From Oscillospiraceae bacterium (lineage in GTDB: Bacteria; Bacillota; Clostridia; Oscillospirales; Oscillospiraceae): a DNA stretch of 64,000 bases. Positions 7,679 through 61,899 of this stretch are shown in pieces. Made by a program: the position numbers and the translations under genes. How positions within the stretch are numbered: the first letter of the stretch is position 1; every line of letters begins with the position of its first letter. Location: contig JAETOQ010000006.1 of assembly GCA_021771635.1 (NCBI GenBank), positions 1,908 through 65,907 on the forward strand. Reading direction: 5' to 3'. Below the pieces are notes generated by a model, which worked only from the letters and a program-made list of their open reading frames with translations, had not been told where the DNA came from and ran no database searches.

Positions 7679-8108
7679 CGGCCCCAACATGAACATGCTG
7701 GGCATCCGCCAGCCGGAGATCTACGGCAAGGCCACCTATGAGGACCTATGCGCCATGATCCGGCAGGAGGCGGACCGTCTGGGCGTGGAGATCAGCTTTT
7801 TTCAGTCCAACCACGAGGGGGCTCTGGTGGATGCCATCCAGCAGGCTTACTTTGACAAGATGGACGGCATCATCATCAACCCTGCCGCCTATACCCACAC
7901 CAGCGTGGCCCTGTTGGACGCGGTGAAGGCCGTGGGTATCCCCACGGTGGAGGTCCATGTCTCCGACCCGGACAGCCGGGAGGAGTTCCGGCACATCTCC
8001 TATATCCGCGCCGCCTGTGTGGGCACCATCCGCGGCCACGGCCTGCCGGGCTATCTGGAGGCTCTGCATCTGTTGTGCGAAAGGCGGCAATATAGTCGGC
8101 ACACTTGA
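7659..8108 (+). CDS. aroQ: type II 3-dehydroquinate dehydratase
   Basis: LNGPNMNMLGIRQPEIYG signature. GTG 7659 has a GGAGGGA RBS. The last 5 codons plus the stop lie inside repeat B1. Confidence 0.9.
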   Translation: MKILVLNGPNMNMLGIRQPEIYGKATYEDLCAMIRQEADRLGVEISFFQSNHEGALVDAIQQAYFDKMDGIIINPAAYTHTSVALLDAVKAVGIPTVEVHVSDPDSREEFRHISYIRAACVGTIRGHGLPGYLEALHLLCERRQYSRHT

Positions 8109-8260
8109 AAATCGGTTAATACCGATTTTCTTACAGCGGCGGAGCCGCTGTGCTGACTATGAAGTCTGACGCAAGGCCGCTTTGCGGCCTTGTGGGGTGA
8201 GATGTCTCCCCCCACAAGTTGAAAAGAAGTTTTTACTTCCTTTCAACTGCGTCAACTATA
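8091..8260 (-). repeat. Family B structured repeat (about 175 bp, five hairpins, imperfect terminal inverted repeats TATAGTYGRC), copy 1 of 4, inverted
   Basis: Aligns by eye over its full length with 17442-17618, 38608-38782 and 42626-42811. The terminus TATAGTCGGCACACTTGA is identical to the reverse complement of the right end of copy 4. Confidence 0.9.
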
Positions 8261-8270
8261 AATACACCAA

Positions 8271-8497
8271 GAGAGCGGCTCCGCCGAAAAGTGGAGCCGC
8301 TCTCAGCTTGTCGAAAAGGTCTTTTCGACAAGCTGCTTAAGATTTCAGAACTTTTTAAAAGTTCTGAAATCTGTTGATTTGAATAGCGCAGGACACCCTT
8401 CCTGGGTTTCCCGCGCACACCTTTCCTTCCCGTTTTCCTGACTTTTCGGGTTTATCGACAGCCTGAGGGCGGCTCCGCCGAAAAGCGGAGCCGCCCT
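8271..8497 (+). repeat. Duplicated GC hairpin (8271-8304 and 8465-8497) bracketing a 160-bp hairpin cassette
   Basis: GAGAGCGGCTCCGCCGAAAAGTGGAGCCGCTCTC and GAGGGCGGCTCCGCCGAAAAGCGGAGCCGCCCT flank an insert. The insert holds the hairpins CTTGTCGAAAAGG/CTTTTCGACAAG and ATTTCAGAAC/GTTCTGAAAT. Confidence 0.8.
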
Positions 8498-8511
8498 GTT
8501 TCGTGTTCGTG

Positions 8512-8544
8512 TAAAAAAGGACTGCCGTTTTCACGGCAGTCCTT
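8512..8544 (-). terminator. intrinsic terminator downstream of cstA
   Basis: Stem AGGACTGCCG/CGGCAGTCCT is followed by a T-run on the minus strand. Confidence 0.7.
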
Positions 8545-8593
8545 TCTCTCAGCGGAGACTGGCAAAACTCCGCTGTTTTTTGAGGCAGAATGC

Positions 8594-10306
8594 TTACTTC
8601 GCAGCAGCCTTCTTCTGCTTGCTGAGGGTGGAAATACCCTCGATAGCCAGGACCACAGCCAGGACTACCAGCAGGACGCCCAGGATCGCCTGGACATAGG
8701 GACCCCAGTCGGCGCCGCCGGCGGAGATCAGACCGATCTGGGTCTTGGTGTTGATGATCAGAGAGCAGATGGTGACGACCAGCATGAAGGCCATGGGCAG
8801 CAGGAACATCTTGTTGTTCTTGCCGATGTTGCCCAGCCAGGTAGCCACAGCCAGCAGGCCCAGGGCGGCCAGCAGCTGGTTGGCGGAGCCAAACAGAGCC
8901 CAGATCTTGCCGTAGCCGTTCAGGCCCAGCAGCACGCCCAGGATGACGGTGATGATGGTGGCAACATACATGTTGGAGAAGAACTTCTTGTAGCCGGTGA
9001 CGTTCTCGGGGGTCTCACCCTTGCTGCCATCCAGCCAGAACTCCTGGAACATGAACCGGGCCAGACGGGTGGCGGTGTCCAGAGAGGTCAGGCAGAAGGA
9101 GGAATAGGTCAGGACCAGCAGGGTGTACAGCACGCTGTACACGCCGCCGTGGTTGGGATCGATCATGCCAGCGATACCGCCGCCGAAGAGGACGGTGGGG
9201 CCCACGCCGATGTCGCCGCCGTTGGCGTTGGCATAGCCAGCCACAGCGCACAGCACCAGGATGGCCAGCACGCACTCCAGCAGCATGCCGCCGTAAGCGA
9301 TGGGCTTGGCGTCGGTCTCTTTATCCAGCTGCTTGGAGGTGGTGCCGGAGGACACCAGGGAGTGGAAGCCGGAGATGGCGCCGCAGGCGATGGTGGTGAA
9401 CAGCACGGGGAAGATGGGGGTAGTGCAGGTCTCGCTGGTCATAGTGGGCAGATTCGCCAGAGTGGGATGACCCACAAACACGGCCACAGCGGCCAGAGCC
9501 AGCATGGCGTACAGCAGGAAGCTGGACAGATAGTCACGGGGCTGCAGCAGGATCCACACGGGGGTGACGGAAGCGATGGCGATGTACAGGCCGCAGATCC
9601 ACATCCAGGCGGTGGTGGACAGATAGATGGGGTGGAAGTTCATGCCGATGGCGATGATCGCCACGATGGCCAGCACGCCCACCACGGAGGCAACGCTCAT
9701 GGGGGCGTTGCGGCGATAGACGCAGAAGCCGAAGATGATGGCGATCACGATGAACAGCAGGGACACCATAGCAACGCGGGCGTTGCTCTCAGATGCCGCC
9801 ATGTCCACAGCACCCGCCTCGGTGAAGGTGGCGCCGAAGGTGCCGGCCACGATGGAGGCGAAGGCCGCCACGACCAGGATCAGCGTCAGATAGGCGAAGA
9901 TCAGGAACAGTGTCTTGGCGCGCTTGGACATATTCTCGGAGATGATCTCACCGATGGAGCGGCCGCCGTGGCGGACGGAGGCAAACAGGGCGCCGAAGTC
10001 ATGGACGCCGCCGAAGAAAATACCGCCGATGACGATCCACAGCAGGCAGGGGATCCAGCCGAAGCCCAGCTTCAAGGCGGAGATGGGGCCGGTGATGGGG
10101 CCGGCGCCTGCGATGGAGGAGAAGTGGTGGCCCATCAGAACAGGGGCCGGAGCGGGGACATAGTCGATCCCGTCTTCCATGGTGTGTGCGGGGGTCTCTT
10201 CGTTGTTCTCACCAACGCCCCACTGCTTGCACAGCCAGCGGCCATAGAAAATATAACCGCACAGCAGAGCCGCGACGCCAATGATGAAAAGTACCAGACC
10301 ATTCAT
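8594..10306 (-). CDS. cstA: carbon starvation protein CstA family transporter
   Basis: 570-aa polytopic membrane protein. The N-terminus MNGLVLFIIG..YIFYGRWL and overall organisation are typical of CstA. Confidence 0.85.
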   Translation of the reverse strand: MNGLVLFIIGVAALLCGYIFYGRWLCKQWGVGENNEETPAHTMEDGIDYVPAPAPVLMGHHFSSIAGAGPITGPISALKLGFGWIPCLLWIVIGGIFFGGVHDFGALFASVRHGGRSIGEIISENMSKRAKTLFLIFAYLTLILVVAAFASIVAGTFGATFTEAGAVDMAASESNARVAMVSLLFIVIAIIFGFCVYRRNAPMSVASVVGVLAIVAIIAIGMNFHPIYLSTTAWMWICGLYIAIASVTPVWILLQPRDYLSSFLLYAMLALAAVAVFVGHPTLANLPTMTSETCTTPIFPVLFTTIACGAISGFHSLVSSGTTSKQLDKETDAKPIAYGGMLLECVLAILVLCAVAGYANANGGDIGVGPTVLFGGGIAGMIDPNHGGVYSVLYTLLVLTYSSFCLTSLDTATRLARFMFQEFWLDGSKGETPENVTGYKKFFSNMYVATIITVILGVLLGLNGYGKIWALFGSANQLLAALGLLAVATWLGNIGKNNKMFLLPMAFMLVVTICSLIINTKTQIGLISAGGADWGPYVQAILGVLLVVLAVVLAIEGISTLSKQKKAAAK

Positions 10307-10325
10307 TGATGTATACTCTCCCTTC

Positions 10326-10838
10326 TTATTCTTTCCCGGCGGGGAAATTCCCCTCCAGGAGTTTGCGTGCTCCCTTGCCGGCTGGATTGGAAAGGAAGCT
10401 GTGTGTCGAAATTTCCATTGCTGCTATGTGATACTCCATCCAGCCATGGAGTGCCAGCCGAAAGTTTTTGCGGAAGCGGGTCTTTTTCATGAGCGCCTTC
10501 GCTTCCGGGTCGATGGTGTCCGCCAGGATCACCAGTGTCACAAAGGAGGACATATGCTCCCTGTTGGGCTTGATCCGGCCCAGGCCGTCCTGGAGACTCC
10601 TGTCGATCTGCGTCTGCAGGTCGGCGGCGTCCAGATGGTCCGCCAGATAAAAATATACGTACTCATGGTTTTCCACCGCGTTGAGCACATGCTTTTTGCT
10701 GATCAGATAGTTCTCATCCCGCAGAAAGTAAAATGCCGCCGCGGGAAAGCCGCCGCCCTCCACCTGCACATCCCTTGTGATGTCATAATGATGGGAATAG
10801 GCGTTCAGCAGCTTCTCAAGTGCCTCTGTCTTATTCAT
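10326..10838 (-). CDS. hypothetical protein (170 aa), directly upstream of cstA
   Basis: Clean ORF with coding-like composition. Its start overlaps the stop of the upstream gene by 4 nt. No motif recognised. Confidence 0.6.
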   Translation of the reverse strand: MNKTEALEKLLNAYSHHYDITRDVQVEGGGFPAAAFYFLRDENYLISKKHVLNAVENHEYVYFYLADHLDAADLQTQIDRSLQDGLGRIKPNREHMSSFVTLVILADTIDPEAKALMKKTRFRKNFRLALHGWMEYHIAAMEISTHSFLSNPAGKGARKLLEGNFPAGKE

Positions 10839-11236
10839 TCACTCTCTCCTGTATCCGGACTTTCCTGGGGATTGGGCTTGGTAAACGCCGCGTGGGGCGC
10901 CAGTTTCTTCAGGCGCTCCAGCAGGGGCGCCGCCTCCCGGGGGTCCCGCAGCTGGACCATAGCCAGCTCCTTCTCCGCGTCGCAGATCACCAGGTTTTCC
11001 ACCTTCAGCTCAACGCTGCGGTGGGGCGCCTTCACCGGGACCAGCAGCACCCTGCGGAAGCAGCGTTGGATATCGCCATAGGGGATGTAGTAGACACGCA
11101 TGCCCCTGCGGAAGAACAGGTGCCGCTCCCCCAGCCGAAGCACGTCTGCCTTTTCGGCCCTCCGGTACTCCGCCGCCAGGGCGGCCGGCTCCGTCGTCTC
11201 TGTTTTCAGCGGACAAAACCCCATAAAATTCTCCAT
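10835..11236 (-). CDS. hypothetical protein (about 130 aa); start uncertain (11236 or 11224)
   Basis: ORF overlaps the next gene by 4 nt. AGAAGGA and GGAGA RBS candidates precede Met22 and Met26. No motif recognised. Confidence 0.5.
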   Translation of the reverse strand: MENFMGFCPLKTETTEPAALAAEYRRAEKADVLRLGERHLFFRRGMRVYYIPYGDIQRCFRRVLLVPVKAPHRSVELKVENLVICDAEKELAMVQLRDPREAAPLLERLKKLAPHAAFTKPNPQESPDTGESE

Positions 11237-11661
11237 TCGTCCTTCTGCGGGGATGCAGTCTGGCTTCCGCGCCCTTTGATGCTCTCCAAGGGGCATCAAA
11301 GCGGGGACACCCCCATACGCCTTCCGCCGTGCGGAATATCTGCTATGATCATGATAGAAAATTTGCCCGATCTATAAAAAAATCGTTAAAAACGGTCTCC
11401 ATCGTATGTGAGTTATTATACACGTTCATTTCGATTTTGTTAAGAGGGGCAAGTTAAATTTGTGTACAATTTGTGAATGGCTCGTTAAAAATTGTGTATT
11501 TCGCGGCATTTTTTTTATGATTCCAGCCTTTTAACTTCCATTTTGCACAATTTTCTTTTTCCCATTTTATGTATTTTGCTCATTTCTTCTACAAACAAGA
11601 CAACAGCGCGTCCGGCCGGATGGCTGAACGCGCTGTTCATTTGGATGTTCGGTCTTCTCTT

Positions 11662-11823
11662 AGAACCTGTATTCACAACCGGTGAACGCCGTCTGAGCGG
11701 TCTTTTTTCCGCCATACTGCGTCGTTTTTCCTTGCCATACGTCAGTATGGCAAGGAAAATCTCCTTGTCTGACAGGAAAAATCCTCGTCCATCCAGCATT
11801 CCCCGGTTATGAATACAGGTTCT
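11662..11823 (+). mobile_element. Family F MITE-like element with 21-bp terminal inverted repeats, copy 1 of 2
   Basis: Ends AGAACCTGTATTCACAACCGG and CCGGTTATGAATACAGGTTCT are inverted repeats. The left half matches the reverse complement of 53275-53352. The right end abuts the GntR stop codon. Confidence 0.85.
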
Positions 11824-12506: not shown

Positions 12507-12602
12507 ACCGATCCCTCCATCCAGCAGATCATTCGACCCGTTATTCTAGCAACTTTCTTTTTTCACAATATAGTCCTTTTTCCCGAAAAACACAAGAATC
12601 TT

Positions 12603-12641
12603 CTTGACATCATACTTTCTTAAGTGTACAATGACATCATA
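12603..12641 (+). promoter_or_regulatory. sigma-A type promoter with two 11-bp direct repeats (candidate operator) upstream of the kor cluster
   Basis: TTGACA (12603-12608), 17-nt spacer, TACAAT (12626-12631). TGACATCATAC occurs at 12604-12614 and again at 12631-12641. Confidence 0.55.
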
Positions 12642-12705
12642 CAACATATCACAAAATAATACAACACTTCTTTTTTTGAAAATGCGCTCGTTAGGAGGAC
12701 CGCCC

Positions 12706-13629: not shown

Positions 13630-13646
13630 GAAGGAGGTCGTTTATC

Positions 13647-17409: not shown

Positions 17410-17441
17410 TCCAAAATCCCTCCACACCTGCCGGTGCGGTT

Positions 17442-17618
17442 TATAGTTGGCGCAGTTGAAAAGAAGCAAAAACTTCTTTTCAACTTGTGGTGGGATATCT
17501 CGCCCCACAAGGCCGCAAAGCGGCCTTGTGTCAGACTCCATAGTCAGGCGGCGCCCGACAGCGGCCCTGCCGCTGTCAGAAAATCGGTATTTACCGATTT
17601 TCAAGTGTGCTGATTATA
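17442..17618 (+). repeat. Family B structured repeat, copy 2 of 4
   Basis: Same five hairpins as the other copies. The outer stem is kept by two G-U pairs on this strand. Confidence 0.9.
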
Positions 17619-17644
17619 CTGCACGGCGTACCGCGCCGTCTCTC

Positions 17645-32308: not shown

Positions 32309-32445
32309 CTATGAACATGCAGATCGCTCTGCTTTCTCCACGGCGGCTCTCACAAATCCGTAAAACAGCGGGTGGGGCCGGTCCGGCCGGGCGTCCTCCG
32401 GATGCCCGAATGATGCCGCACCGCCTCGCCGCTGATGCGGCAACC
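32309..32445 (-). pseudogene. orphan duplicate of the pyrG 3' end
   Basis: 32333-32390 is identical to 32496-32553 inside pyrG. The fragment reads ..[37 protein letters not shown] against pyrG ..[34 protein letters not shown]. Confidence 0.8.
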
Positions 32446-32480
32446 GCCGGTGATGGCATAAGAGCCGCCCCTCTGCCCGC

Positions 32481-34088
32481 TTATTCTGCCTCCATTTTCT
32501 CCACGGCGGCTCTCACAAATCCGTAAAACAGCGGGTGGGGCCGGTCCGGCCGGCTCTTGAACTCCGGATGGAACTGGGCGCCCACGAACCAGGGGTGGTC
32601 CGGCAGCTCCACGATCTCCACCAGACGGCCGTCGGGGGACAAACCCGCCAGAACCATGCCCTTTTCCTCCATCTCCGCCCGGAAATCGTTGCTGAACTCA
32701 TAGCGGTGGCGGTGGCGTTCGGAGATCTCCCTGGAGCCGTACAGTCCGGCGCTGCGGCTGCCCTCCGTCAGGACGCAGGGGTACTTTCCAAGCCGCATGG
32801 TGCCGCCCTTTTCCGTCACGTTTACCTGGTCCGGCATCAGATCGATGACCGGGTGCCGGGTAGACTCGGAAAATTCGGAGGAATTGGCGTCCTCATACCC
32901 CAGGACATGGCGGGCAAACTCAATGACCGCCATCTGCATCCCCAGGCAGATGCCGAAATAGGGGATGCGGTTCTCCCGGGCATAGCGAACGGCGCAGAGC
33001 ATGCCCTCGATGCCCCGGTCGCCGAAGCCGCCGGGCACCAGAACGCCGGCGCAGCCCGCCAGCCGCTCCGCCGCGTTGCCGTCGGTCAGGCCCTCGGAGT
33101 CGATCCAATCGATGTCCACGATGGCGTCGTTGGCGGTGCCGGCGTGGTTCAGAGACTCCACCACGGAGAGGTAGGCGTCATGGAGCTGGGTGTATTTGCC
33201 GACCAAAGCGATGCGGACCTTTTTGTGGGCGTTTTTCTCCCGCCTGACCATGGCGCTCCACTCCCGCAGGTCCGGCTGGTGGGTGATCAGCCCCAGCTTG
33301 CGGCAGACCGCCTCATCCAGTCCCTCCCTGGCCATCAGCAGGGGGACCTCATACAGCGTCTCCGCCGTGGTGTTCTGGATCACACAGTCCGGCTCCACAT
33401 TGCAGAAGAGGGCGATCTTCCGGCGGATATCCTCGGTGATGGGCTCGTCGCAGCGGCAGACCAGCACATCCGGCTGGATACCCAGGGACAGAAGTTCCTT
33501 CACAGAGTGCTGGGTGGGCTTGGACTTCAGCTCACCGGAGCCAGGGATCTGCACGATCAGGGGCACATGGATGAACACCACGTCCCCGTGGGGCCGCTCC
33601 GCGGCCACCTGGCGGATGGCCTCCAGGAAGGGCTGGGACTCGATGTCGCCCACAGTGCCGCCGATCTCGGAGATCACCACGTCCACATCCTCACCGGCCA
33701 TGGCGTAGATGCGGCTCTTGATCTCGTTGGTGATGTGGGGGATGATCTGGACCGTGGCGCCCAGATAGTCGCCCCGGCGCTCCCGATTCAGCACGGACCA
33801 CCAGATCTTGCCGGAGGAGATGGAGCTGTTGCCCGACAGGTCCTCGTCCACGAACCGCTCGTAATGGCCCAGGTCCAGGTCTGTCTCCGCGCCGTCGTCG
33901 GTGACGAAGACCTCTCCGTGCTGATAGGGGCTCATGGTGCCGGGGTCCACATTGATATAGGGATCGAATTTCTGGTTGCGCACCCGGACGCCCCGCTGTT
34001 TCAAAAGCCGTCCCAGAGACGCCGCGCAGATCCCCTTTCCCAACCCGGAGACCACGCCGCCGGTCACAAATACGAATTTTGTTGACAT
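32481..34088 (-). CDS. pyrG: CTP synthase
   Basis: [20 protein letters not shown]-terminus and the glutamine amidotransferase GICLGMQ; 535 aa. Confidence 0.95.
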
Positions 34089-36963: not shown

Positions 36964-37750
36964 GGTCAAGAATATCCATAAGACATTCAACGCGGGCACG
37001 GTCAACGAAAAGCACGCCCTGCGGGGCGTGAGCCTGACGCTGAACGACGGCGACTTCGTCACGGTCATCGGCGGCAACGGCGCCGGCAAGTCCACCCTGT
37101 TGAACGCCGTGGCCGGCGTGTGGGCCGTGGACAGCGGCAGCATCTCCATCGACGGCAGAGACCTGACCCACATGCCGGAACACAAGCGGGCCCGGTACAT
37201 CGGCCGCGTGTTCCAGGATCCCATGCAGGGCACCGCCGCCACCATGCAGATCGAGGAAAACCTGGCCCTGGCCGCCCGCCGGGGCAAGCGCCGCACACTC
37301 CGCCCCGGCATCACCAAGGCGGAGCGGGCGGAGTATATCGAGCGGCTGAAAATTCTGGACCTGGGCCTGGAGGAGCGGCTGACCAGCAAGGTGGGCCTGC
37401 TCTCCGGCGGACAGCGCCAGGCGCTGACACTGCTGATGGCCACCCTGATCAAGCCCCAGCTGCTGCTGTTGGACGAACACACCGCCGCCCTGGATCCCAA
37501 GACCGCCGCAAAGGTGCTGGACGCCACGGACCTCCTGGTGTCCAAGGACCATTTGACGACACTCATGATCACCCACAACATGAAGGATGCCATTGCCCAT
37601 GGCAACCGGCTCATCATGATGTATGAGGGGCGCATCGTCATCGACGTCTCCGGTGAGGAGAAAAGGAAGCTGACCGTCCCCCAGCTGCTGGAGCTGTTCA
37701 ACAAGGTCAGCGGCAGTGACGAGGCAGACGACAAGCTGCTGCTCTCGTAA
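36956..37750 (+). CDS. ABC transporter ATP-binding protein (TrpZ-like)
   Basis: Walker A GGNGAGKST, LSGGQRQ and LLLLDEHTAALD. ATG 36956 follows an AAGGAG RBS. Confidence 0.9.
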   Translation: MFEVKNIHKTFNAGTVNEKHALRGVSLTLNDGDFVTVIGGNGAGKSTLLNAVAGVWAVDSGSISIDGRDLTHMPEHKRARYIGRVFQDPMQGTAATMQIEENLALAARRGKRRTLRPGITKAERAEYIERLKILDLGLEERLTSKVGLLSGGQRQALTLLMATLIKPQLLLLDEHTAALDPKTAAKVLDATDLLVSKDHLTTLMITHNMKDAIAHGNRLIMMYEGRIVIDVSGEEKRKLTVPQLLELFNKVSGSDEADDKLLLS

Positions 37751-38022
37751 GCCGCTGACCGGGGCCCCGCGCAGCGGGGCGCGCCGTATGGCGCGTCAAG
37801 CGTTTGCCCCAGGCAAACCTTGGAGCGGGCGGGCTCTGCCTGTCCGCTCCAGTCCTATCGCAGGGCTCCCGTCCGGAAATCCGGACGGGAATCAGCGGCA
37901 GCGATGAGGCGGACGACAAGCTGCTGCTCTCATAAGCCGCTGAACGGGGCCCCGCGCAGCGGGGCGCGCCGTATGGCGCGTCAAGCGTTTGCCCCAGGCA
38001 AACCTTGGAGCGGGCGGGCTCT
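37707..38022 (+). repeat. 131-bp direct duplication (37707-37837 and 37892-38022) including the last 12 codons of the ATPase gene
   Basis: The copies differ at 5 positions. All 4 differences inside the coding fragment are synonymous (both read SGSDEADDKLLLS*). A 54-bp hairpin spacer lies between them. Confidence 0.9.
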
Positions 38023-38235: not shown

Positions 38236-38517
38236 CAATCAAATATAAAACCGATGAGCAAGAGGAGTAACCGGCTAGGGGACCTTTCAGAGAGCTGTGG
38301 ATGGTGGGATCACAGCAGAGAACTTTCCGGCGAATGGACTTGCGAGGGCAGCGCGAACGAGCAAACCGCTTCAGTAGCATATGACGGGGACCGCACCCGT
38401 TATCAGGGCGGCACGGATGAATGTCCGTGAAAGGAGCGGGCGCTATGCGTCAACTTGGGTGGTACCGCAGGATTTAAGTCTTGTCCCAACTTTGGGATAG
38501 GGCTTTTTATTTTTTTC
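38236..38517 (+). promoter_or_regulatory. T-box riboswitch leader, tryptophan specifier (UGG)
   Basis: GA/K-turn GAUGAG, AGUA, AG bay CAGAGAG, distal GGUGGGA. Specifier loop GAA-UGG-A-CUUGCGAG with UGG at 38335-38337. T-box TTGGGTGGTACCGCAGG at 38455-38471. Terminator at 38476-38517. Confidence 0.9.
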
Positions 38518-38607
38518 CTGGGAGGTCAAATGACATGAAGCTTTACACAAAACGATGGCGCGGCTGGTGACAGACAGCAGTTTCCATCCCCGGCCGCAAT
38601 GAGCTGA

Positions 38608-38782
38608 TATAGTTGACGCAGTTGAAAAGAAGCAAAGCCTTCTTTTCAACTTGTGGGGGCAGCTCACCCCACAAGGCCGCAAAGCGGCCTTGTGGCAGAC
38701 GTCCGCACAGGGGCAGCGCCCGGCAGCGGCTCCGCCGCTGTCAGGAAATCGGTATTTGCCGATTTTCAAGTGTGCCGACTAT
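38608..38782 (+). repeat. Family B structured repeat, copy 3 of 4, inside the 5' UTR between the T-box terminator and SBP gene 2
   Basis: Full-length alignment with the other B copies. Confidence 0.9.
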
Positions 38783-38817
38783 CTCATCATTATCATATAT
38801 AGATTGGAGAAATCACG

Positions 38818-42596: not shown

Positions 42597-42626
42597 AAAG
42601 CGGGCCGTCTTGACGGCCCGCTTTTT
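42597..42626 (+). terminator. intrinsic terminator of ABC operon 2
   Basis: GCGGGCCGTC/GACGGCCCGC followed by TTTTT. Confidence 0.8.
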
Positions 42627-42811
42627 ATAGTTGACGCAGTTGAAAAGAAGTAAAGACTTCTTTTCAACTTGTGGGGTGAGATGTCTCCCCCCACAAGGCC
42701 GCAAAGCGGCCTTGCGTCAGACTTCATAGTCAGCACACGGGCGGCGCCCGGCAGCGGCTCTGCTGCTGTAAGAAAATCGGTATTTACCGATTTTCAAGTG
42801 TGCCGACTATA
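42626..42811 (+). repeat. Family B structured repeat, copy 4 of 4
   Basis: TATAGTTGACGCAG...GTGTGCCGACTATA. Outer stem TGACGCA/TGCGTCA encloses three hairpins, followed by two more. Confidence 0.9.
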
Positions 42812-42894
42812 TCAGCTTTCACAAGCGTCAAGCCGGCGGTCCGAAAGGACCGCCGGCTTGCTCATAGGGGGAGAGTATGGAAGTTTTCGTCTGC

Positions 42895-48475: not shown

Positions 48476-48561
48476 GGCCTCACTTGGAATAGACCTCCGG
48501 CTTCAGCACGCCGATGTACGGCATGTTGCGGTACTGCTGGCAGTAGTCCAGGCCATAGCCC
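48476..48561 (-). pseudogene. orphan duplicate of the hpt 3' end (last 27 codons plus stop)
   Basis: 86 bp identical to 48709-48794. Separated from the intact hpt by a 147-bp hairpin cassette (48562-48708). Confidence 0.9.
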
Positions 48562-48712
48562 CTTCCCACCGGACAAGTCCGGCGGGAGCCCTTTGAGATC
48601 TTTCCAACCAGGCCGAAATGAATCCGGCCTGGTTCGAGGTTTTGCTTTCCGCAAAACCCTCGTACGCCGTACCCGGCGGTCCCGCTCTGCGGGACCGTGG
48701 TGGTCTATGGCC

Positions 48713-49264
48713 TCACTTGGAATAGACCTCCGGCTTCAGCACGCCGATGTACGGCATGTTGCGGTACTGCTGGCAGTAGTCCAGGCCATAGCCCACCACG
48801 AATTCATCGGGCACCACAAAGCCCGCCAGATCCGCGGTGACAGCCTTGGTGCGGCGGGAGGGCTTATCCAGCAGGGTGACGATGGTGATGGACGCGGCGC
48901 CCTTGGCCTTGAAGTAATCCCGCAAAAACGCCAGGGTGTTGCCGGAGTCCAGAATGTCCTCCACGATGATCAGGTGCCGCCCAGTGATATCCTGCTGGAT
49001 GTCATGATTGATCTTCACCCGGCCGGAGGACACGGTGGCGTTCTCGTAGGAGCTGACGGCGATGAACTCCACATCGCTCTTCAGCTGGCAGGCCCGGACC
49101 AGGTCCGCCATGAACACGAAGGAGCCCTTCAGTACGCTGAGAAACAGCGGGTCCTTGCCCTGGAACTTCTCATACAGCGCGTCACCCATCTCCGCGATGC
49201 GGGCCTTGATCTCCTCCTCCGTCACCAGGACTTTCAGGATGTCGTTTTCCATCTCACTTCTCAT
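48713..49264 (-). CDS. hpt: hypoxanthine phosphoribosyltransferase
   Basis: PRPP motif LIIVEDILDSGNTL. The start may be 49264 or 49252. Confidence 0.9.
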   Translation of the reverse strand: MRSEMENDILKVLVTEEEIKARIAEMGDALYEKFQGKDPLFLSVLKGSFVFMADLVRACQLKSDVEFIAVSSYENATVSSGRVKINHDIQQDITGRHLIIVEDILDSGNTLAFLRDYFKAKGAASITIVTLLDKPSRRTKAVTADLAGFVVPDEFVVGYGLDYCQQYRNMPYIGVLKPEVYSK

Positions 49265-56356: not shown

Positions 56357-56401
56357 AAATTGAGGAAGTGATACCATAGTATAGAAGAAAGGGGTGTGCA
56401 G

Positions 56402-56632: not shown

Positions 56633-56638
56633 TACATG

Positions 56639-56761
56639 GCGGCGTAAACCGCCGCCGCGCCCGCGGCGCACCAAGAAGAGTATTGACAACATTCTTGCGG
56701 CTGCGCCGCCGGGCCGCAGAATGCGGCCCCATAAAACGATTGCATCGTTTTATGAAGAATT
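56639..56761 (-). repeat. Family D hairpin repeat, copy 2 (right arm of the inverted pair)
   Basis: See 55869-55993. Starts 6 bp after the XRE stop codon. Confidence 0.85.
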
Positions 56762-56907
56762 CGTATAAAAAAACCGCCCGGACGGGCGGTTTTTTCGTTC
56801 CGCCCCTCTCCCGGAGGCCGCCGGTTCTCCGGAGAGAAGCGCAAAAGAGACCGCCGGCATTCAATCGGCAGTCTCTTTTCGAAAAAGGAGAAAAGGCAGA
56901 TACGCAT

Positions 56908-58110
56908 TCAGCTGATCCGCCCGGGAATCGGATTTGCGGCGCGGTCCGCGCGGAGCAGCGCCAGATTCAGCGCCAGGGCCGCCAAAGCCACCGCCGCCGC
57001 GGGCAGGCCGAGATTTCGCAGGCCCACCGCCTCCTGCAAGGCGCTGCTGGCAAAGGAGCCGGCGGCGATGCCGATATTCCCCGCCACAGACAGTGTGGAG
57101 GCGCAGAGGCTGGCGGCAAAGGGATACTCCCGCTCCGCCAGCGCCATGGCATAGACCTGGACGGGGGTGCTCAGCAGATACATGAGCAGCGCCATCAGGA
57201 GCACACCTGCGAGCCCCGTCCGGAACTGTCCCAGCAGCAGCGGCATGGCCGCAAACAAGATCGCCTGCAGAAGCAGGAAGCCGGGCGTTTTGACCACTCC
57301 GCCGCGGGAGCCCAGCCATCCGGCCAGAAGATTGCTGCCCATGCAGCACAGGCCCACCAGCATCAGCAGCAGGCTGACGGCATTCTCCGTCCCATGGAGC
57401 ACATCCGTCAGGATCGGCGTCAGATACGTATAAACAACATAGGTCGCGGCATAGGCGCAGATCGTCATCAGCACGCACAGGGAATAGCGCCGGTCCCGCA
57501 GCACAGTGAACTGGTGAATAAAGCCGGTCCCCTCCGCCGGAGCCTCCACAGTGCGGGGCAGCAGCCGGGCCAGGATCGGAAGCAGGACAGCGCCCAGCAG
57601 CAGGATCACGGCAAAGGTCGCCCGCCATCCCAGCAGGCGGCAGATCGCCTTGTTCAGCGGATTCCCCACCACAGTGGCCAGAGACATCCCGGTGTAGACC
57701 ATCGCCACGGCCCGGGCCGTCTGCTCCGGCCGCGCCACCTGGCGCACAAAGAGCAGCGCCACCGCGGTCAGCGTTCCGGTGAGTATGGCCGCCAGTGTCC
57801 GGGTGAGATACAGCACCCAGATATTCGGCGCCAGCATGCTCAGGGCGTTCACCACCAGGAACAGCGCCATCAGGACCATCAGGAACCGAAACCGGGGGAC
57901 CCGGGCCGTGGCTGCCATCACAACAGGCGTGCCTATGGCATATCCGGCGGCAAACACGCTCACCAGCCGCCCCGCCGCGCTGAGAGATACCTCCAGGTCC
58001 GCGGCAATGTCCGGCAGAATGACCACGGATACATATTCGCAGGCCCCCAGCATCACGCCCAGCCCCGCCAGGGCCAGCACCGGCGCCGACATCACATGCT
58101 TCTTCCTCAT
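56908..58110 (-). CDS. MFS transporter (12 TM, sugar/drug efflux-like)
   Basis: 400-aa polytopic protein with an MFS motif-A-like GRLVSVFAAGYAIG. GGAGGA RBS 9 nt upstream of ATG 58110. Confidence 0.8.
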   Translation of the reverse strand: MRKKHVMSAPVLALAGLGVMLGACEYVSVVILPDIAADLEVSLSAAGRLVSVFAAGYAIGTPVVMAATARVPRFRFLMVLMALFLVVNALSMLAPNIWVLYLTRTLAAILTGTLTAVALLFVRQVARPEQTARAVAMVYTGMSLATVVGNPLNKAICRLLGWRATFAVILLLGAVLLPILARLLPRTVEAPAEGTGFIHQFTVLRDRRYSLCVLMTICAYAATYVVYTYLTPILTDVLHGTENAVSLLLMLVGLCCMGSNLLAGWLGSRGGVVKTPGFLLLQAILFAAMPLLLGQFRTGLAGVLLMALLMYLLSTPVQVYAMALAEREYPFAASLCASTLSVAGNIGIAAGSFASSALQEAVGLRNLGLPAAAVALAALALNLALLRADRAANPIPGRIS

Positions 58111-58200
58111 ATGGCATTTTCCTCCGTTCTGTGTCCGTACACAGAATTGTTTCGATAAATGGGGGACCGCGGTCCCCCGGGATATTTCCGCAAGCCTTTC

Positions 58201-58363
58201 ATACTAGGATCCATTAAAAAGATTTTTCCCCGCAAGTGGGACGCGGCATCCGTAAGCGGCGGAGCCGTCAACGGCTGCCCAGTATAGCGCCGAAGGCGCG
58301 TTGGATTCTTATGAGACGTGTTTTGCGTCATTTATGGCGCAAAGCGGAACGTGTTTTATTTGA
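58201..58363 (+). repeat. Family C hairpin repeat, copy 1
   Basis: Aligns with the reverse complement of 59624-59766 (ATACTAGGATCCATTAAAAAG..., ...GCGTTGGATTCTTATGAGACG...). Confidence 0.85.
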
Positions 58364-58371
58364 AATTAGTA

Positions 58372-59397
58372 TCACAGCATCTCCGCGTTCAGGATCGGGC
58401 TTGCGGGATAAAAACAGTCCTTTTCCGGCGGCTTGTGTTCGGCGATCATCCGGAACAGCAGCGTCAGCGACTGGTAGCTCTGGTAGACCAGATTCTGGTC
58501 GATGGTGAAATCCACCAGTCCCTCCTTCAGGAACCGCCGGATCTCAGGCCCGCTGTCGTGGGACAGCACCCGGACCTTCCCGGTCCGCCCCTGGCGGCGG
58601 ATGGCCTCCACACAGGCGGGCACGCTGATATTGGCCATATAGATATAGCCCAGGGCGGGGTCCTCTTCCAGGGCGGCGGATACCGCCGCGAAGGTCTTGT
58701 CATAGTCGTTGTGGGTGGCGGCGATCCGGCAGTCCTCCCGCCGGAAGCCCAATTCCTCCAACCGCTCCAGGAAACCGTCCGCCCGGGCTTTGTGGCCCGC
58801 GTAGGCCGGGCCGGCGTAAACCAGCAGCAGCGGATCACCGGGCCTCAAAAACTTGGCGGCGATCTCCCCCGCCACCCGTCCGGCGTGATGGGCGTCCTCC
58901 CCCACATAGCACAGGCGGGGGCCAGATGGAATATCCGAGTTGAACGTCACCACGGGGATCTTCCGCTCCGCCAGCGCCGTCAGCTTTGCCCGAACCGCCT
59001 CACAGTCGGAAGCGCACAGGGCGATCCCCTGGGCGCCGTTCTTCGCCACCTGGTCCACCAGCTTCAGGCAGGCCGCCGTGTCGTCCGGCTCATAACAGCG
59101 GACGTCCACCGTGACGTTGTAATCCCGGCGCTCCTCCCGAAAATCGGCCACGCCCTCCGCTATGGAGTCCCGCACATACGGCTCCCACTCCGGCTGGACC
59201 ACTGCCAGCCGCCGGGCCGTTCCGCTGGTGGCCAGGGCGCTGGCCATCCGGTTCGGCTGGTAATCCAGCTCCTCCAGGACCTGAAGGACTCGCTCCCGCA
59301 CCTCCGCCTTCACGTAGGGCCGGTCATGCAGCACCCGGTCCACCGTGCCGATGGACACCCCCGCCTTTTCCGCGATCATCTTGATGGTAGCCCGCAT
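58372..59397 (-). CDS. LacI-family transcriptional regulator
   Basis: N-terminal HTH IKMIAEKAGVSIGTVDRVLHDRPYV plus a periplasmic-binding-fold C-domain. Confidence 0.9.
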   Translation of the reverse strand: MRATIKMIAEKAGVSIGTVDRVLHDRPYVKAEVRERVLQVLEELDYQPNRMASALATSGTARRLAVVQPEWEPYVRDSIAEGVADFREERRDYNVTVDVRCYEPDDTAACLKLVDQVAKNGAQGIALCASDCEAVRAKLTALAERKIPVVTFNSDIPSGPRLCYVGEDAHHAGRVAGEIAAKFLRPGDPLLLVYAGPAYAGHKARADGFLERLEELGFRREDCRIAATHNDYDKTFAAVSAALEEDPALGYIYMANISVPACVEAIRRQGRTGKVRVLSHDSGPEIRRFLKEGLVDFTIDQNLVYQSYQSLTLLFRMIAEHKPPEKDCFYPASPILNAEML

Positions 59398-59623
59398 GAG
59401 ATCCGCCTCCCCACGTTTCTGTTAACGTACACATGATAGCATTCCCAGCGGTTTTGTCAAGCCGCTTTTTTGTTTTTTGTGCAGAAAGTTACCATTACAC
59501 AAAAATTTTTGTATACAAACACGGGTGCCTGTGCTATACTATATCAAGTTAAGCGTTGAGGAGCTTGGCTTCTCCGCTGTTTTTTCTTGTATTTCACCGG
59601 TTCGGAACGCGCTTTTCCCCCGG

Positions 59624-59766
59624 TCAAATAATACGCATTTTGCGTTTTCGTTTTGTGCCCAAATGGCACAAAACCCGTCTCATAAGAATCCAACGCGTCT
59701 TTGACGCTATACTGGGCATCCCCCTCGCGGGGAAAACTTTTCAAGCTTTTTAATGGATTCTAGTAT
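59624..59766 (-). repeat. Family C hairpin repeat, copy 2 (inverted)
   Basis: See 58201-58363. Confidence 0.85.
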
Positions 59767-59956
59767 AAATCGACAGTTTCCCCATATCTGATCTCGACAT
59801 GACGTGAACGAACCCCTGCCGGCGAAACGGGGCCGCGCAGGCAACGGACGTCTCTTTTTTGCGTACGCTTTTTCGCGTATCGTGTCCCGCCGCGTCCTGT
59901 CCGGCTGAGGGGAACTGCCGCTACATATCCGTAAATTCAAAGGAGTATTTTGATCT

Positions 59957-61615
59957 ATGGCAGAAAAACTGAAAATCATTCCCCTGGGCGGTCTCAACGA
60001 GATCGGCAAGAACATGACCGCCTACGAGTACGGCGGGGAGATCATCGTGGTGGACTGCGGCATGGCCTTCCCCGGCGATGATATGTACGGCATCGACAGC
60101 GTGATCCCCGACGTCACCTATCTCATCAAGAACCGCTCCCGCATCCGCGGGCTCTTCATCACCCACGGCCACGAGGACCATGTGGGCGCCATCCCCTATG
60201 TCCTCAAGCAGGTCAACATGCCCATCTACTGCACCCGCTTTACCGCCGGCCTCATCAAGCTGAAGCTGGAGGAGCACCAGCTGGTGAAGTCCACCAAGCT
60301 CATCACCGTGGAACCGGGCAAATCCGTCCGGGCGGGCAAGTTCACCGTGGAGTTCATCCACGTGAACCACTCCATCGCCGACTCCGTGGCCTTCGCCATC
60401 CACACGAAGATGGGTACCGTGGTCCACACCGGCGACTTCAAGATCGACTCCACCCCCATCGACGGGGAGGTCATCGACCTGGCCCGGCTGGGCGAGCTGG
60501 GCAAGGAGGGTGTCCTGTGCCTGTGCGCCGACTCCACCAATGTGGAGCGCCCCGGCTTTACACCCTCCGAAAAGACGGTGGGCGCCACCTTCACCCGCCA
60601 GTTCCAGAACTGCGATGAGCGCATCATCGTCACCACCTTCGCCTCCAATGTCCACCGTATCCAGCAGGTGCTGGATGCCGCCGCCCAGTGCGGGCGGAAG
60701 GTGGCCGTCACCGGCCGCAGCATGGAGAACATGATGAGGGTCTCCACGGAACTGGGCTATATGAAGGTGCCCAAGAACACCCTCATGGACATCAACAAAC
60801 TCAAGGGCCTGCCCAAAAACAAGCAGGTCATTGTCACCACCGGAAGCCAGGGCGAGGAGATGAGCGCCCTGTACCGCATGGCCTTCTCCACCCATAAGCA
60901 GGTGGAGCTGGGCGCCGGCGACAAGGTCATCATCTCCGCCTCCGCCATCCCCGGCAACGAGGTGACGGTGGGCCGTGTCATCAACGAGCTGTTCCGCAAG
61001 GGCGTGAAGGTGGTCTATGACAAGGCGGACATCCTCCACGTCTCCGGCCACGCCTGCCAGGAGGAGCTGAAGATCGTCCACGCCCTGACGAAGCCCCGTT
61101 TCTTCGTCCCCCTCCACGGCGAGCAGCGGATGCTCCAGATCCACAGCCAGCTGGCCCAGGACATGGGCATGGACCGCAACCACATCGCCATCGCGGACAA
61201 CGGCTCCGTCATCGAGTTCACCGCCAAGACGCTGAAGATCAACGGCTCCGTCCCCGCCGGCGAGGTGTATGTGGACGGCTCCGGCGTGGGCGACGTGGGG
61301 GCCGTGGTCATGCGGGACCGCAAGCGCCTGGCCGAGGACGGCATGGTGGTGGTGGTCCTGCCCATCTCCGCCCACAACGGCGACCTGCTGACGCCGCCGG
61401 AGATCGTCACCCGGGGCTTCATCTATGTGAAGGAGTCCGGGGACCTGATGAAGGAGCTGCAGGCTGTGGCTCTGGACGCGGCGGACGCCGTCTCCCGCAA
61501 GCGCGGGCGGGATGACAGCGAGCTGAAGGGCGCGGTGAAATCCGCCGTCAGCAGCTATCTGTTCAAAAACACCAAGCGCAGCCCCATGGTCATCCCTGTG
61601 GTGACGCGGCTGTAA
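59957..61615 (+). CDS. rnj: ribonuclease J
   Basis: KIIPLGGLNEIGKNM and the beta-CASP metallo-beta-lactamase motif THGHEDHVGAIPY; 552 aa. Confidence 0.95.
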   Translation: MAEKLKIIPLGGLNEIGKNMTAYEYGGEIIVVDCGMAFPGDDMYGIDSVIPDVTYLIKNRSRIRGLFITHGHEDHVGAIPYVLKQVNMPIYCTRFTAGLIKLKLEEHQLVKSTKLITVEPGKSVRAGKFTVEFIHVNHSIADSVAFAIHTKMGTVVHTGDFKIDSTPIDGEVIDLARLGELGKEGVLCLCADSTNVERPGFTPSEKTVGATFTRQFQNCDERIIVTTFASNVHRIQQVLDAAAQCGRKVAVTGRSMENMMRVSTELGYMKVPKNTLMDINKLKGLPKNKQVIVTTGSQGEEMSALYRMAFSTHKQVELGAGDKVIISASAIPGNEVTVGRVINELFRKGVKVVYDKADILHVSGHACQEELKIVHALTKPRFFVPLHGEQRMLQIHSQLAQDMGMDRNHIAIADNGSVIEFTAKTLKINGSVPAGEVYVDGSGVGDVGAVVMRDRKRLAEDGMVVVVLPISAHNGDLLTPPEIVTRGFIYVKESGDLMKELQAVALDAADAVSRKRGRDDSELKGAVKSAVSSYLFKNTKRSPMVIPVVTRL

Positions 61616-61621
61616 AGCAGA

Positions 61622-61899
61622 AAAGCGGAACGGCAGAGCCGTTCCGTTTCAGCCTGTCGAAAAAGTCCGTTGGTGACTTTTTCGACAGGCTTCAAAATGC
61701 CTCGCTTTTGGTCTGTTTCACAGGCCAAAAGGCTCCCGCTTCGCGGGGCAAACGCCTGTTATCACAGGCTTTTTGCAGGCATTCGATCCAATACGAGGGG
61801 ACTACCGCCCCCTCGTACTCCCCCTGCAAGAATGGCAATTTCTGCTCTTGATAACACTGAAGCGGAACGGCGCTGCCGTTCCGCTTTCTTTGCGTCCGT
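61622..61899 (+). repeat. Duplicated rnj terminator hairpin (61622-61650 and 61871-61899) bracketing a 220-bp hairpin cassette
   Basis: AAGCGGAACGGCAGAGCCGTTCCGTTTC and AAGCGGAACGGCGCTGCCGTTCCGCTTTC. The insert starts with CCTGTCGAAAAAGT/ACTTTTTCGACAGG and has at least 4 further stems. Confidence 0.85.

Follow-up and report, generated by a model that had tools for sequence, protein, structure and literature searches.

The window, that is, the whole stretch of 64,000 nucleotides that was analysed, lies on contig C130 of a 2.8-Mb assembly of the species, a draft of 170 contigs that is called G000 here. Downstream of aroQ, at the 3' ends of pyrG, of an ABC ATPase gene and of hpt, and at the rnj terminator, an insert lies between two copies of a gene end or of a terminator hairpin (Table 1). 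This copy-insert-copy layout had been proposed for the five loci by a sequence-only reading of the window, and it was verified in the sequence at each of them. At the ABC ATPase locus, 126 of 131 positions are identical between 37707-37837 and 37892-38022. Two of the three differences between the stem-loop copies downstream of aroQ form a compensatory stem pair.

Table 1. Features of the five copy-insert-copy loci (positions in the window; A, duplicated segment)
Feature	Position	Strand	Observation
Terminator-like GC-rich stem-loop downstream of aroQ, left copy of the MITE target duplication	8272..8303	.	29/32 identical to 8466-8497
IS1182-type MITE, 163-nt size class	8304..8465	+	starts CAGCTTGTCGAAAAG, finishes TTTATCGACAGCCTG; ends match the IS in L036/L039
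Same stem-loop, right copy	8466..8497	.	pair of 8272..8303
Native pyrG tail, AERSACS and stop	32309..32332	-	terminates pyrG in empty alleles; the M24 peptidase start follows after 12 nt
pyrG orphan copy of A	32333..32390	-	matches the working copy at 58/58 positions
pyrG insert, made up of hairpins followed by a pyrG-like stretch that has diverged (GAASFGHPEDA), this being the orphan's inner edge after erosion	32391..32480	-	sequence comparison
pyrG tail of the filled allele, MEAE and stop	32481..32495	-	the insert's initial 15 nt encode it
pyrG working copy of A, 19 codons	32496..32553	-	58/58 identical to the orphan copy
ABC ATPase working gene end, comprising 13 terminal codons and the stop	37707..37750	+	copy comparison
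Family-1 hairpin module, five hairpins, gene-sense, the last being HP1 (GGGCTCCCGTCCGGAAATCCGGACGGGAA)	37751..37891	+	orthologue in G094 lies between two identical 46-nt gene ends
ABC ATPase orphan gene end, unchanged in peptide and stop, with 4 synonymous differences	37892..37935	+	copy comparison
Second family-1 module copy, truncated in the loop of the second hairpin	37936..38022	+	what is left of another array unit
hpt orphan copy of A, adjoining the ftsH leader	48476..48561	-	matches the working copy at 86/86 positions
Family-1 hairpin module between hpt and ftsH	48562..48708	- (gene-sense)	orthologues of 15 species keep the stems by compensatory changes
hpt working copy of A, comprising 27 terminal codons, the stop codon and 4 nt more	48709..48794	-	86/86 identical to the orphan copy
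rnj terminator stem-loop, left copy	61623..61649	+	8 nt past the stop codon of rnj (61613-61615); agrees with the right copy at 23/27 positions
IS1182-type MITE, about 210 nt	61650..61859	+	starts CAGCCTGTCGAAAAAG; right end degenerate (TTGATAACACTG)
rnj terminator stem-loop, right copy, then T-rich tract	61860..61886	+	pair of 61623..61649

A genome-wide k-mer scan of the 2.8-Mb assembly for local A-x-A repeats (A of at least 28 nt) found 36. A gene 3' end lies no more than 8 nt from a copy in 15 of them and within about 20 nt in four more; two lie at a gene 5' end, and four are protein repeats within a single ORF. Because 3'-end windows make up about 2% of the genome, gene 3' ends are strongly over-represented among these repeats, as the sequence-only reading had expected. 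Its description of the copy as either a gene 3' end or a terminator hairpin fits the five loci but not the rest of the genome, where a whole tRNA-Leu(CAG) gene (G000:C79) and the first 15 codons of a gene (G000:C101) are also duplicated. A single process for all five loci was not borne out, since the inserts at aroQ and rnj are IS1182-type MITEs and those at hpt, the ABC ATPase gene and pyrG are gene-end modules. We consider it rather probable that two causes stand behind the pattern, namely IS1182-type MITEs at hairpins and older gene-end hairpin units that are kept by recombination.

The inserts downstream of aroQ and rnj are non-autonomous derivatives (MITEs) of an IS1182-family insertion sequence, and they duplicate a whole terminator hairpin. 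Their ends (CAGnnTGTCGAnAA) match those of a 1.57-kb IS of the same genus (Oscillibacter/Dysosmobacter), of which complete copies are present in two other genomes of the genus (L036:1403-2971 and L039:1403-2975); the IS termini, CAGTCTGTCGAG at the left and TTTTCGACAGACTG at the right, match those of the MITE downstream of aroQ. Both complete copies have duplicated a terminator stem-loop, of 24 bp and 32 bp, and the T-tract follows the right copy only. The IS encodes a protein of 490 aa (L036:1433-2902, minus strand) that reaches 407 bits with NF033551 (IS1182 family transposase, cut-off 270) and also matches DUF772, DDE_Tnp_1 and DDE_Tnp_1_6; NF033559 gave 25 bits only. A profile search found no IS1182 transposase assembled in G000 itself, the autonomous partner being known from other genomes of the genus. 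The MITE downstream of aroQ has about 90 BLAST matches in G000, and its first 32 nt are a palindrome fused from the left and the right end. Relatives of the rnj MITE, 221 nt long, have hairpin duplications of 23-33 bp at both sides, and direct repeats of 23-36 bp, each a complete hairpin, surround 19 of 23 paired MITE copies in the genome. These results show that the IS1182-type DDE transposase joins the element to both feet of a GC-rich stem-loop, whereupon gap repair doubles the entire terminator hairpin (23-36 bp). Insertion with staggered breaks at terminator hairpins, one of the explanations offered earlier, is upheld at these two loci by the complete IS copies and the 19 MITE copies; template switching, offered beside it, leaves the far junction inside the coding sequence in the coding cases unexplained.

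The direct repeats of IS1182-family elements span 2-60 bp (PMC7335449), and palindromic or hairpin targets have been reported, e.g., for IS1272/TnSha1 of staphylococci (PMC4923244, PMC5678879). The two inserts agree with this family in having the termini of the genus IS, which encodes a transposase of NF033551 grade, and in targeting terminator hairpins. In IS1272, part of the hairpin is reportedly deleted or replaced, with no duplication (PMC4923244, PMC5678879), whereas the IS and MITEs of this genus duplicate the whole stem-loop. Hairpin duplication by IS1182-type elements is a known family trait, and these MITEs are ordinary. The IS1182 family was rejected as a source of the hpt, ABC ATPase and pyrG inserts because the terminal inverted repeats of the IS are absent from them; unlike IS1182 elements, the family-1, family-2 and pyrG modules lack such termini and have much longer duplications.

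Gene-end units occur at hpt, the ABC ATPase gene, pyrG and at least eight further genes. The module lies in gene sense, directly after the stop codon or a few codons before it, and behind it the gene end occurs a second time. The non-coding inserts have lengths of 54-170 nt, and the array units (copy and module) measure 163-235 bp. The modules have no terminal inverted repeats and no CAGnnTGTCGA ends; one end, formed by the hairpin HP1, is precise and the other is variable. Families 1 and 2 are related and have HP1 in common. The module orientation follows the gene even at hpt and the ABC ATPase gene, which are 11 kb apart in opposite orientations. All seven full-length family-1 copies of this genome are flanked by duplications (47-132 nt), as are almost all those retrieved from other genomes of the genus, the sole exception lying at a contig end. 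Family-1 copies without HP1 have no flanking duplication, and in G065 and G092 the ABC ATPase gene carries a module without HP1 and without an orphan copy. The pyrG hairpin insert is locus-specific and stands apart from both families.

Empty sites, looked for within the species, were found at hpt and pyrG as alleles that lack exactly the insert and one copy. At hpt the module and the orphan (233 bp) are missing together from six contigs and present in four; at pyrG two contigs are empty and six filled, and they differ by 163 bp, exactly one period (insert and one copy). The empty pyrG alleles (L194, L195) end in AERSACS*, the orphan tail, and the filled ones in MEAE*, so that the insert supplies a replacement gene end and leaves the gene intact, as att-site logic would have it. 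Orthologues of the pyrG insert occur in at least 17 species (up to four units in G165), and the inner edge of the pyrG orphan copy has decayed non-synonymously. At least 13 species have the hpt structure; it recurs in many independent assemblies and is also present in the isolate O. valericigenes An890, and the junction of HP1 and orphan is identical in 13 species. Overall, the same gene-end junctions recur in at least 13-20 species, the (A-x)n-A arrays have 0-4 units (2-4 in other species and strains), and conspecific alleles differ by exactly one unit. That strain bubbles of a metagenome-assembled genome had collapsed to false repeats has a negligible probability: the draft has 170 contigs and repeats of 160-235 bp are near read length, but the structures span at least 13-20 species and assemblies from different pipelines, both copies carry species-specific substitutions, and the isolate genome has them too.

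Working and orphan copies show concerted evolution, differing within one genome at a median of 1 in 69 nt and between species at a mean of 7.2. The copy differences at six loci comprise 24 synonymous and 3 non-synonymous codons (binomial p about 3e-10). At C131, seven of the last eight codons (stop included) differ between the copies and the peptide PGSNYKR* is unchanged, and at guaB two synonymous variants have swapped their order between strains; some orphan copies decay, with a 1-nt frameshift in L206, L212 and L213. Our results demonstrate that the gene-end units are ancient and persist as (A-x)n-A arrays, that, through homologous recombination between the A copies, single units are deleted with precision, others are added and the copies are made uniform, and that the downstream "orphan" is the native gene end, which is functional again when the unit is lost. 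Because both ends would be exposed to selection in turn and exchanged across lineages by homologous recombination, we infer that they are kept in frame with almost only synonymous differences. Of the earlier idea of repeated integration and loss beside a replacement gene end, gain and loss stand, given the one-unit allele differences, the arrays of two to four units and the different pyrG tail of filled alleles; a site-specific att recombinase does not.

Each gene most likely acquired its unit through a founding insertion in which 40-130 bp of the target were duplicated. Every locus examined is old, and no pristine target duplication was seen among them. At 8 of 10 loci, only about 0-6 nt separate the stop codon from the outer boundary of A; since a random staggered cut does not predict such placement, selection or erosion of non-coding similarity is needed. 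It is unlikely that no mobile element took part and that replication slippage or template switching in hairpin-rich 3' regions made tandem duplications that straddle gene ends by chance. Plain tandem duplications without a gene end do occur (G000:C165:7476-7795, C80:176-474 and C18:28744-28990; periods 129-170), arrays grow and shrink, and the ABC ATPase duplication takes in 87 nt of the module and resembles a tandem duplication rather than an insertion. However, tandem duplication predicts A-x-A-x, and the usual form is A-x-A with native downstream sequence right after the second A. Moreover, one module family sits at at least ten unrelated genes, always in sense and with HP1 always exactly at the junction, modules without HP1 have no duplication, and a module at a new gene, against an empty ancestral site without module sequence, was observed for old events.

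A founding insertion by a site-specific recombinase was also considered. A profile search of the genome with Pfam PF00589, PF00239, PF00665, PF01609, PF13751, PF01797, PF07282 and PF00078 gave no match on contig C130, so that the absence of a recombinase gene, stated earlier for the window, extends to transposase and reverse-transcriptase matches on the whole contig. The 14 tyrosine-recombinase and 13 serine-recombinase matches are all on other contigs, and the sole Y1 transposase match (PF01797, contig C144) has two in-frame stop codons. Prophages and islands carry a replacement end of their target gene at tRNA genes, icd or guaA, and integrative elements of this kind include phage 21 and e14 at icd, islands at tRNA and tmRNA genes and SXT at prfC. 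Like them, the gene-end units leave the gene intact with an orphan native end downstream, the similarity of the copies stops at the gene boundary (stop codon, tRNA ends or start codon), the two ends differ synonymously like alleles, as in an end imported from another lineage, and the insert side at pyrG supplies a new tail and stop, different from that of the empty allele. Recombinases of both types are encoded elsewhere in the genome. Nevertheless, it is improbable that the inserts are miniature or decayed integrative elements that were placed by a tyrosine or serine recombinase and carried a replacement gene end: they are only 54-170 nt long and encode nothing, and recombinase matches are absent from the contig. 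The duplicated segments of hpt, the ABC ATPase gene, pyrG, guaB, C56, C91, C92 and C1 are unrelated to one another and have no common core, and one recombinase could therefore not recognise all loci. The variation between 0 and 4 units, their gain and loss and the homogenisation of copies resemble the outcome of RecA-type homologous recombination between repeats. Without inverted-repeat ends on the inserts and an att core in the duplicated segments, a site-specific recombinase is unlikely, and the strict att-site explanation is not supported for the coding cases.

The stems of the modules are kept by compensatory changes, and the consensus fold is more stable on the sense strand. Wobble pairs on the sense strand are biased to G-U over A-C (22:1 at hpt and 19:2 at C56), an asymmetry that may partly reflect strand-biased mutation and comes from related, not independent, sequences; it suggests selection on the sense transcript. 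Compensatory change and sense-strand wobble together make it probable that the module functions at the transcript level, as a REP-like structure in 3' or intercistronic position. The Rfam 15 covariance models gave only chance-level matches to the gene-end modules. In the window, a T-box at 38245-38491 alone reaches its gathering score.

A structure apparently selected on the sense strand would also fit insertion through RNA, in which a reverse transcriptase copies a module transcript, primed at a target nick, and leaves an insert that is exact at its 3' end and variable at its 5' end, between duplications of variable length. The gene-sense 3' end (HP1) is indeed precise, the 5' side consists of 12-24 nt of unrelated sequence, the duplications range from 36 to 131 nt with the orientation always sense, and one reverse transcriptase is encoded in the genome, on another contig than the window. 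But judged by its motifs this enzyme resembles a retron type; an endonuclease domain is missing from it, and no sequence is shared between its surroundings and the modules. Truncated copies miss the 3' hairpin and not the 5' part, the reverse of target-primed reverse transcription, and the junction has no tail or priming motif, which makes this route very improbable. A diversity-generating retroelement was considered as well and rejected: no reverse transcriptase adjoins the repeats, the only one being encoded on another contig, the copies differ by synonymous transitions at any base instead of at adenines specifically, and housekeeping genes are affected.

The literature searches found no published description of gene-end hairpin units, and known repeats resemble them in part. 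REP/BIME sequences of enterobacteria are extragenic palindromes that stabilise upstream mRNA, mediate duplications and are mobilised by RAYT Y1 transposases. Like them, the modules are strings of GC-rich hairpins at 3' ends and between operon genes, kept by compensatory change, co-oriented with transcription and hot spots of local duplication; unlike them, they show no REP consensus, and REPs are not known to be flanked by gene-end copies. In the MIRU minisatellites of mycobacteria, the unit ends coincide with the stop and start codons of the flanking genes. MIRUs are reportedly (Supply et al. 1997) tandem, co-oriented units between operon genes with strain-variable copy number. The gene-end units share all these properties, but they are 163-235 bp long, consist of a true copy of the last codons and a hairpin module, and have no sequence relation to MIRUs. 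IS1634 and IS1549 are autonomous, IS4-related DDE elements with inverted-repeat ends and long direct repeats whose length varies from 17 to about 480 bp. Their variable target duplications of tens to hundreds of bp are a precedent for the gene-end units, whose modules, unlike these elements, have no inverted-repeat ends or associated transposase.

As a tentative joint reading, which we regard as possible rather than likely, the gene-end units would be an undescribed, widespread class of small structured elements that insert just inside gene ends with a duplication of 40-130 bp, possibly by a transcription- or RNA-linked mechanism, and then remain in place as reversible cassettes for millions of years. 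The gene-end copies would be built-in homology arms by which a cassette is precisely lost, amplified or passed from lineage to lineage, and the presence/absence polymorphism would be maintained because the module alters mRNA stability or operon polarity, e.g., at hpt/ftsH. The gene-end hairpin unit is an old, poorly described type of module that is gained, lost and multiplied by recombination without damage to the gene. Such units account for "orphan" gene tails annotated as pseudogene fragments, which here are native ends kept usable. Housekeeping operons of a common gut genus (tilS-hpt-ftsH, pyrG, guaB) hold old, recombinationally reversible non-coding cassettes, and the genus has cultured strains and many polymorphic gene-end loci. 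These cassettes are a hidden strain-to-strain variation that alters the PyrG C-terminus and may affect expression.

The copy-insert-copy layout was found at all five loci where it had been read from the sequence alone, and the positions and identities of the two copies are listed in the table. A k-mer scan across the entire genome under study, a draft of 2.80 Mb in 170 contigs with 59.7% G+C whose closest relatives at hpt (97% identity) carry the labels Dysosmobacter or Oscillibacter, gut Oscillospiraceae, detected 36 local repeats of this kind. With genes called roughly by ORF length and third-position G+C, 19 of the 36 were located at a gene 3' end, 2 at a 5' end, and 4 were protein repeats within one ORF; the suspected excess at 3' ends is thus present genome-wide. 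The sequence-only reading had treated the five loci as one pattern, produced by staggered or template-switching insertion or by repeated integration and loss of elements carrying a replacement gene end. This stands in part: two of the five are ordinary MITEs, and three are gene-end cassettes. The hpt, ABC ATPase and pyrG loci represent an interesting and seemingly undescribed kind of gene-end cassette, and a literature search on long duplications of target DNA at the ends of genes gave nothing relevant except papers on IS1182.

Table. Coordinates of the features discussed (C, contigs of the genome under study; L, contigs fetched from related genomes or conspecific strains)
Feature	Sequence	Position	Strand	Details
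pyrG, copy 1 and copy 2	window	32333-32390; 32496-32553		identity 58/58
pyrG orphan tail AERSACS*	window	32309-32332		
hpt, copy 1 and copy 2	window	48476-48561; 48709-48794	-	identity 86/86
ABC ATPase, copy 1 and copy 2	window	37707-37837; 37892-38022	+	identity 126/131
rnj terminator hairpin, copy 1 and copy 2	window	61623-61649; 61860-61886		identity 23/27
Hairpin downstream of aroQ, copy 1 and copy 2	window	8272-8303; 8466-8497		identity 29/32
MITE insert, aroQ-downstream	window	8304-8465		
MITE insert, rnj	window	61650-61859		
Fused-end palindrome	window	8304-8335		32 nt
Third repeat family, copy 1	window	8092-8262		overlaps aroQ end (ORF 7659-8108)
Third repeat family, copy 2	window	17440-17626		
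Third repeat family, copy 3	window	38606-38791		
Third repeat family, copy 4	window	42624-42819		
T-box leader	window	38245-38491	+	Rfam RF00230, 101 bits; upstream of gene starting 38818
tRNA-Leu(CAG) duplication	C79	8761-9102		L091:363-703
5'-end duplication, family 2	C101	7306-7522	-	L097
Tandem repeat	C165	7476-7795		period 170 nt
Tandem repeat	C80	176-474		period 156 nt
Tandem repeat	C18	28744-28990		period 129 nt
Reverse transcriptase	C51	12407-13519	+	370 aa, Pfam RVT_1
IS1182-type IS	L036	1403-2971		
IS1182-type IS	L039	1403-2975		
IS30-like ORF	L028	180-1277		365 aa; contig C88 of genome G015

The aroQ-downstream and rnj loci are explained as IS1182-type MITEs. Their inserts start with CAGCTTGTCGAAAAG or CAGCCTGTCGAAAAAG and finish with TTTATCGACAGCCTG or with a degenerate version. 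Of 23 paired copies in the genome, which fall into classes of about 128, 163 and 221 nt, 19 stand within direct repeats of 23-36 bp that each form a complete GC-rich stem-loop. Elsewhere in the genus, a 1.57-kb IS (L036 and L039) has the same ends, and a terminator stem-loop (24 and 32 bp) is duplicated around it, the left copy lying before the IS and the right copy after it with the T-tract behind. This IS encodes a transposase of the IS1182 family (NF033551, 407 bits; also DUF772, DDE_Tnp_1 and DDE_Tnp_1_6); no IS1182 transposase is assembled in the genome under study. Two other IS1182-like elements of the genus (L024 and L029) were rejected as the MITE parent, their ends being different and the hairpin duplication absent. 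Direct repeats of IS1182 range from 2 to 60 bp according to the ISfinder figure quoted in PMC7335449, and IS1272 and its relatives target hairpins or palindromes, there without duplication (PMC4923244, PMC5678879). Palindromes of 32 nt in which the left end is fused to the right end (CAGCTTGTCGAAAAG-GT-CTTTTCGACAAGCTG) have about 180 matches across the genome and resemble minimal relics of two ends or copies of a circle junction. On L028, an ORF resembling an IS30-type (integrase-core) transposase is immediately followed by an isolated C-terminal fragment and the right end of an IS1182-type IS, in which it may be nested. A third repeat family (about 175-190 nt, five hairpins, ends TATAGTYGRC.../...GYCRACTATA) has four copies in the window, one of which provides the last codons and the stop codon of aroQ.

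The inserts at hpt, the ABC ATPase gene, pyrG and related loci lack inverted-repeat ends. Family 1, a string of four to five hairpins, occurs at hpt, the ABC ATPase gene, guaB (C165), tRNA-Leu (C79) and loci on C56, C131 and C91. In gene-sense reading its 3' limit is exact at a hairpin, HP1, which stands directly against the orphan copy, i.e., the downstream second copy; the foot of HP1 is conserved (CCCAC...GYGGGA) and its inner stem varies. The opposite side of the module has 12-24 nt of unrelated sequence behind the stop codon. Family 2 (loci on C92, C1 and C101) also has HP1, but terminates in a different long hairpin followed by GACGC. Flanking duplications of 47-132 nt were found at 7/7 full-length family-1 copies of this genome and at nearly all full-length copies from other genomes, the sole exception being at a contig end, and were absent from all module copies without HP1. 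The strictness of this link fits a target-duplicating insertion, which is the simplest single event giving two copies around an insert with native flank after the second. Plain tandem duplication predicts a further insert after the second copy and fits only secondary features, such as the second partial module at the ABC ATPase gene, an extension in genome G022 and the plain tandem repeats on C165, C80 and C18. These three repeats (98-99% identity) consist of hairpin-rich non-coding DNA behind genes and carry no gene-end copy. Movement of the modules by a site-specific recombinase is unlikely, as the inserts code for nothing, the loci have no common core and no such gene is present on the window's contig. 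Target-primed reverse transcription fits in part, with the exact 3' end and variable 5' end in its favor, but truncated copies without the 3' hairpin are not what it predicts, and the only reverse transcriptase of the genome looks retron-type by its motifs.

No consistent microhomology or target motif was found at the module junctions, no Rfam family matched the modules, and no parent IS was found in the genome when the third hairpin was taken for a fused pair of ends. Hidden transposon ends in family 1 were rejected, the ends having no inverted repeats, and so were a link to a TnpB element (C11), a broken Y1 gene (C144) or the retron-type reverse transcriptase, with which the modules share no sequence, and in-frame translation of the orphan from the module, since the HP1 frame differs among loci and no ORF is conserved. 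The coding cases fall outside the hairpin-foot rule of IS1182, because their duplicated segments do not close end to end: such folding was found for the tRNA only, and for 0/10 coding or intergenic segments vs 26/401 control gene ends (DNA parameters). At C79, the module lies between two identical 89-nt tRNA-Leu(CAG) genes (100%), the duplicated unit running from position -1 to CCA, and a tRNA-Leu(GAG) gene is located just upstream. At C101, the module lies between two copies of the first 15 codons of a minus-strand gene, and an AAAGAGG ribosome-binding site on the module side stands 9 nt ahead of the working ATG. A T-box leader is located just downstream of the ABC ATPase duplication.

The empty-site comparison confirmed that the duplication is tied to the insert. 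Among public contigs encoding an identical Hpt protein, 6 lack and 4 have exactly 233 bp, i.e., the module plus one copy, and among contigs encoding an identical M24 peptidase, 2 lack and 6 have exactly 163 bp at pyrG. Copies and inserts are therefore gained or lost jointly, which refutes a duplication independent of the insert. The empty pyrG allele ends in ...VEKAERSACS*, 12 nt ahead of the peptidase start, and the filled allele has this AERSACS* tail on its orphan; pyrG itself ends in ...VEKMEAE* in the filled allele, a tail that the insert encodes in its first 15 nt. Thus the downstream copy is native and the upstream copy is the replacement. At six loci the two copies share the frame and both have a stop codon, with 24 synonymous vs 3 non-synonymous codon differences (binomial p ~3e-10 against 30% synonymous), and at C131, 7 of the 8 terminal codons (stop counted) differ while the peptide is still PGSNYKR*. 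Judged from these codon comparisons, neutral decay of a target duplication could not give such a pattern. Both ends would be under selection, the upstream one in filled alleles and the downstream one after loss of the unit. Protection of the orphans is not absolute: a 1-nt frameshift is present in one of the guaB lineages, and the pyrG orphan shows non-synonymous decay at its inner edge.

Strains carry the same two synonymous variants of guaB with positions swapped between working and orphan copy. In the guaB 3' region of conspecific contigs (L204-L213), two haplotype groups have the variants of three codons, GCT CAT GAC and GCG CAC GAT, swapped and also differ in the downstream DNA; two of these contigs (L204 and L205) have two units. 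The orphan of genome G111 has 6 differences to the genome under study vs 7 to G111, being no nearer to its own gene than to alleles of other species. From the swap and these distances we infer that the ends were exchanged between lineages, probably via homologous recombination. At 8 of 10 loci the copies cease to be similar within about 0-6 nt of the stop codon; the limits are the tRNA ends at C79 and the ATG at C101. These limits would follow if non-coding similarity were not renewed between lineages, and modules behind a terminator would have no transcript effect and would be lost quickly.

The units are old and shared among species. The HP1/orphan junction of hpt is the same in the 13 species examined, and match lengths place the hpt unit in 8 of the 12 closest named genomes, among them the isolate O. 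valericigenes An890; at least 20 species have the C56 unit and at least 17 the pyrG unit. The ABC ATPase unit is a simple module between 46-nt copies (100%) in genome G094, is absent from G019, and in G065 and G092 consists of the module with neither HP1 nor an orphan. The two hpt copies within a genome share species-specific substitutions (median 1 difference per 69 nt vs a mean of 7.2 between species), and the working copy of the same genome is the orphan's nearest, or ties, in 11 of 13 species. Genomes G159, G113, G091, G129 and G165 and contigs L116, L118, L204 and L205 carry arrays of two to four units.

The module direction is the gene direction even at hpt and the ABC ATPase gene, which lie 11 kb apart on opposite strands, so the orientation is tied to transcription and not to replication direction. 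Orthologous modules retain their stems via compensatory changes. On the sense strand, G-U pairs vs A-C mismatches were 22:1 at hpt (15 species) and 19:2 at C56 (7 species), and the sense-strand consensus fold was more stable (-57.9 vs -49.9, and -79.3 vs -65.1), in a comparison of related sequences to which strand-biased mutation may contribute. This sense bias suggests selection on the transcript, as a REP-like stabiliser or an intercistronic processing site. The gene-end cassettes resemble integrative elements restoring a gene end, REP/BIME elements, MIRU-like minisatellites and IS elements making long direct repeats, but do not appear to fit the defining features of any of them. These loci contribute direct evidence that empty alleles use the orphan as their functional end, together with the behaviour of arrays and copy number, a measure of concerted evolution across 13 species and a structure signal on the sense strand.
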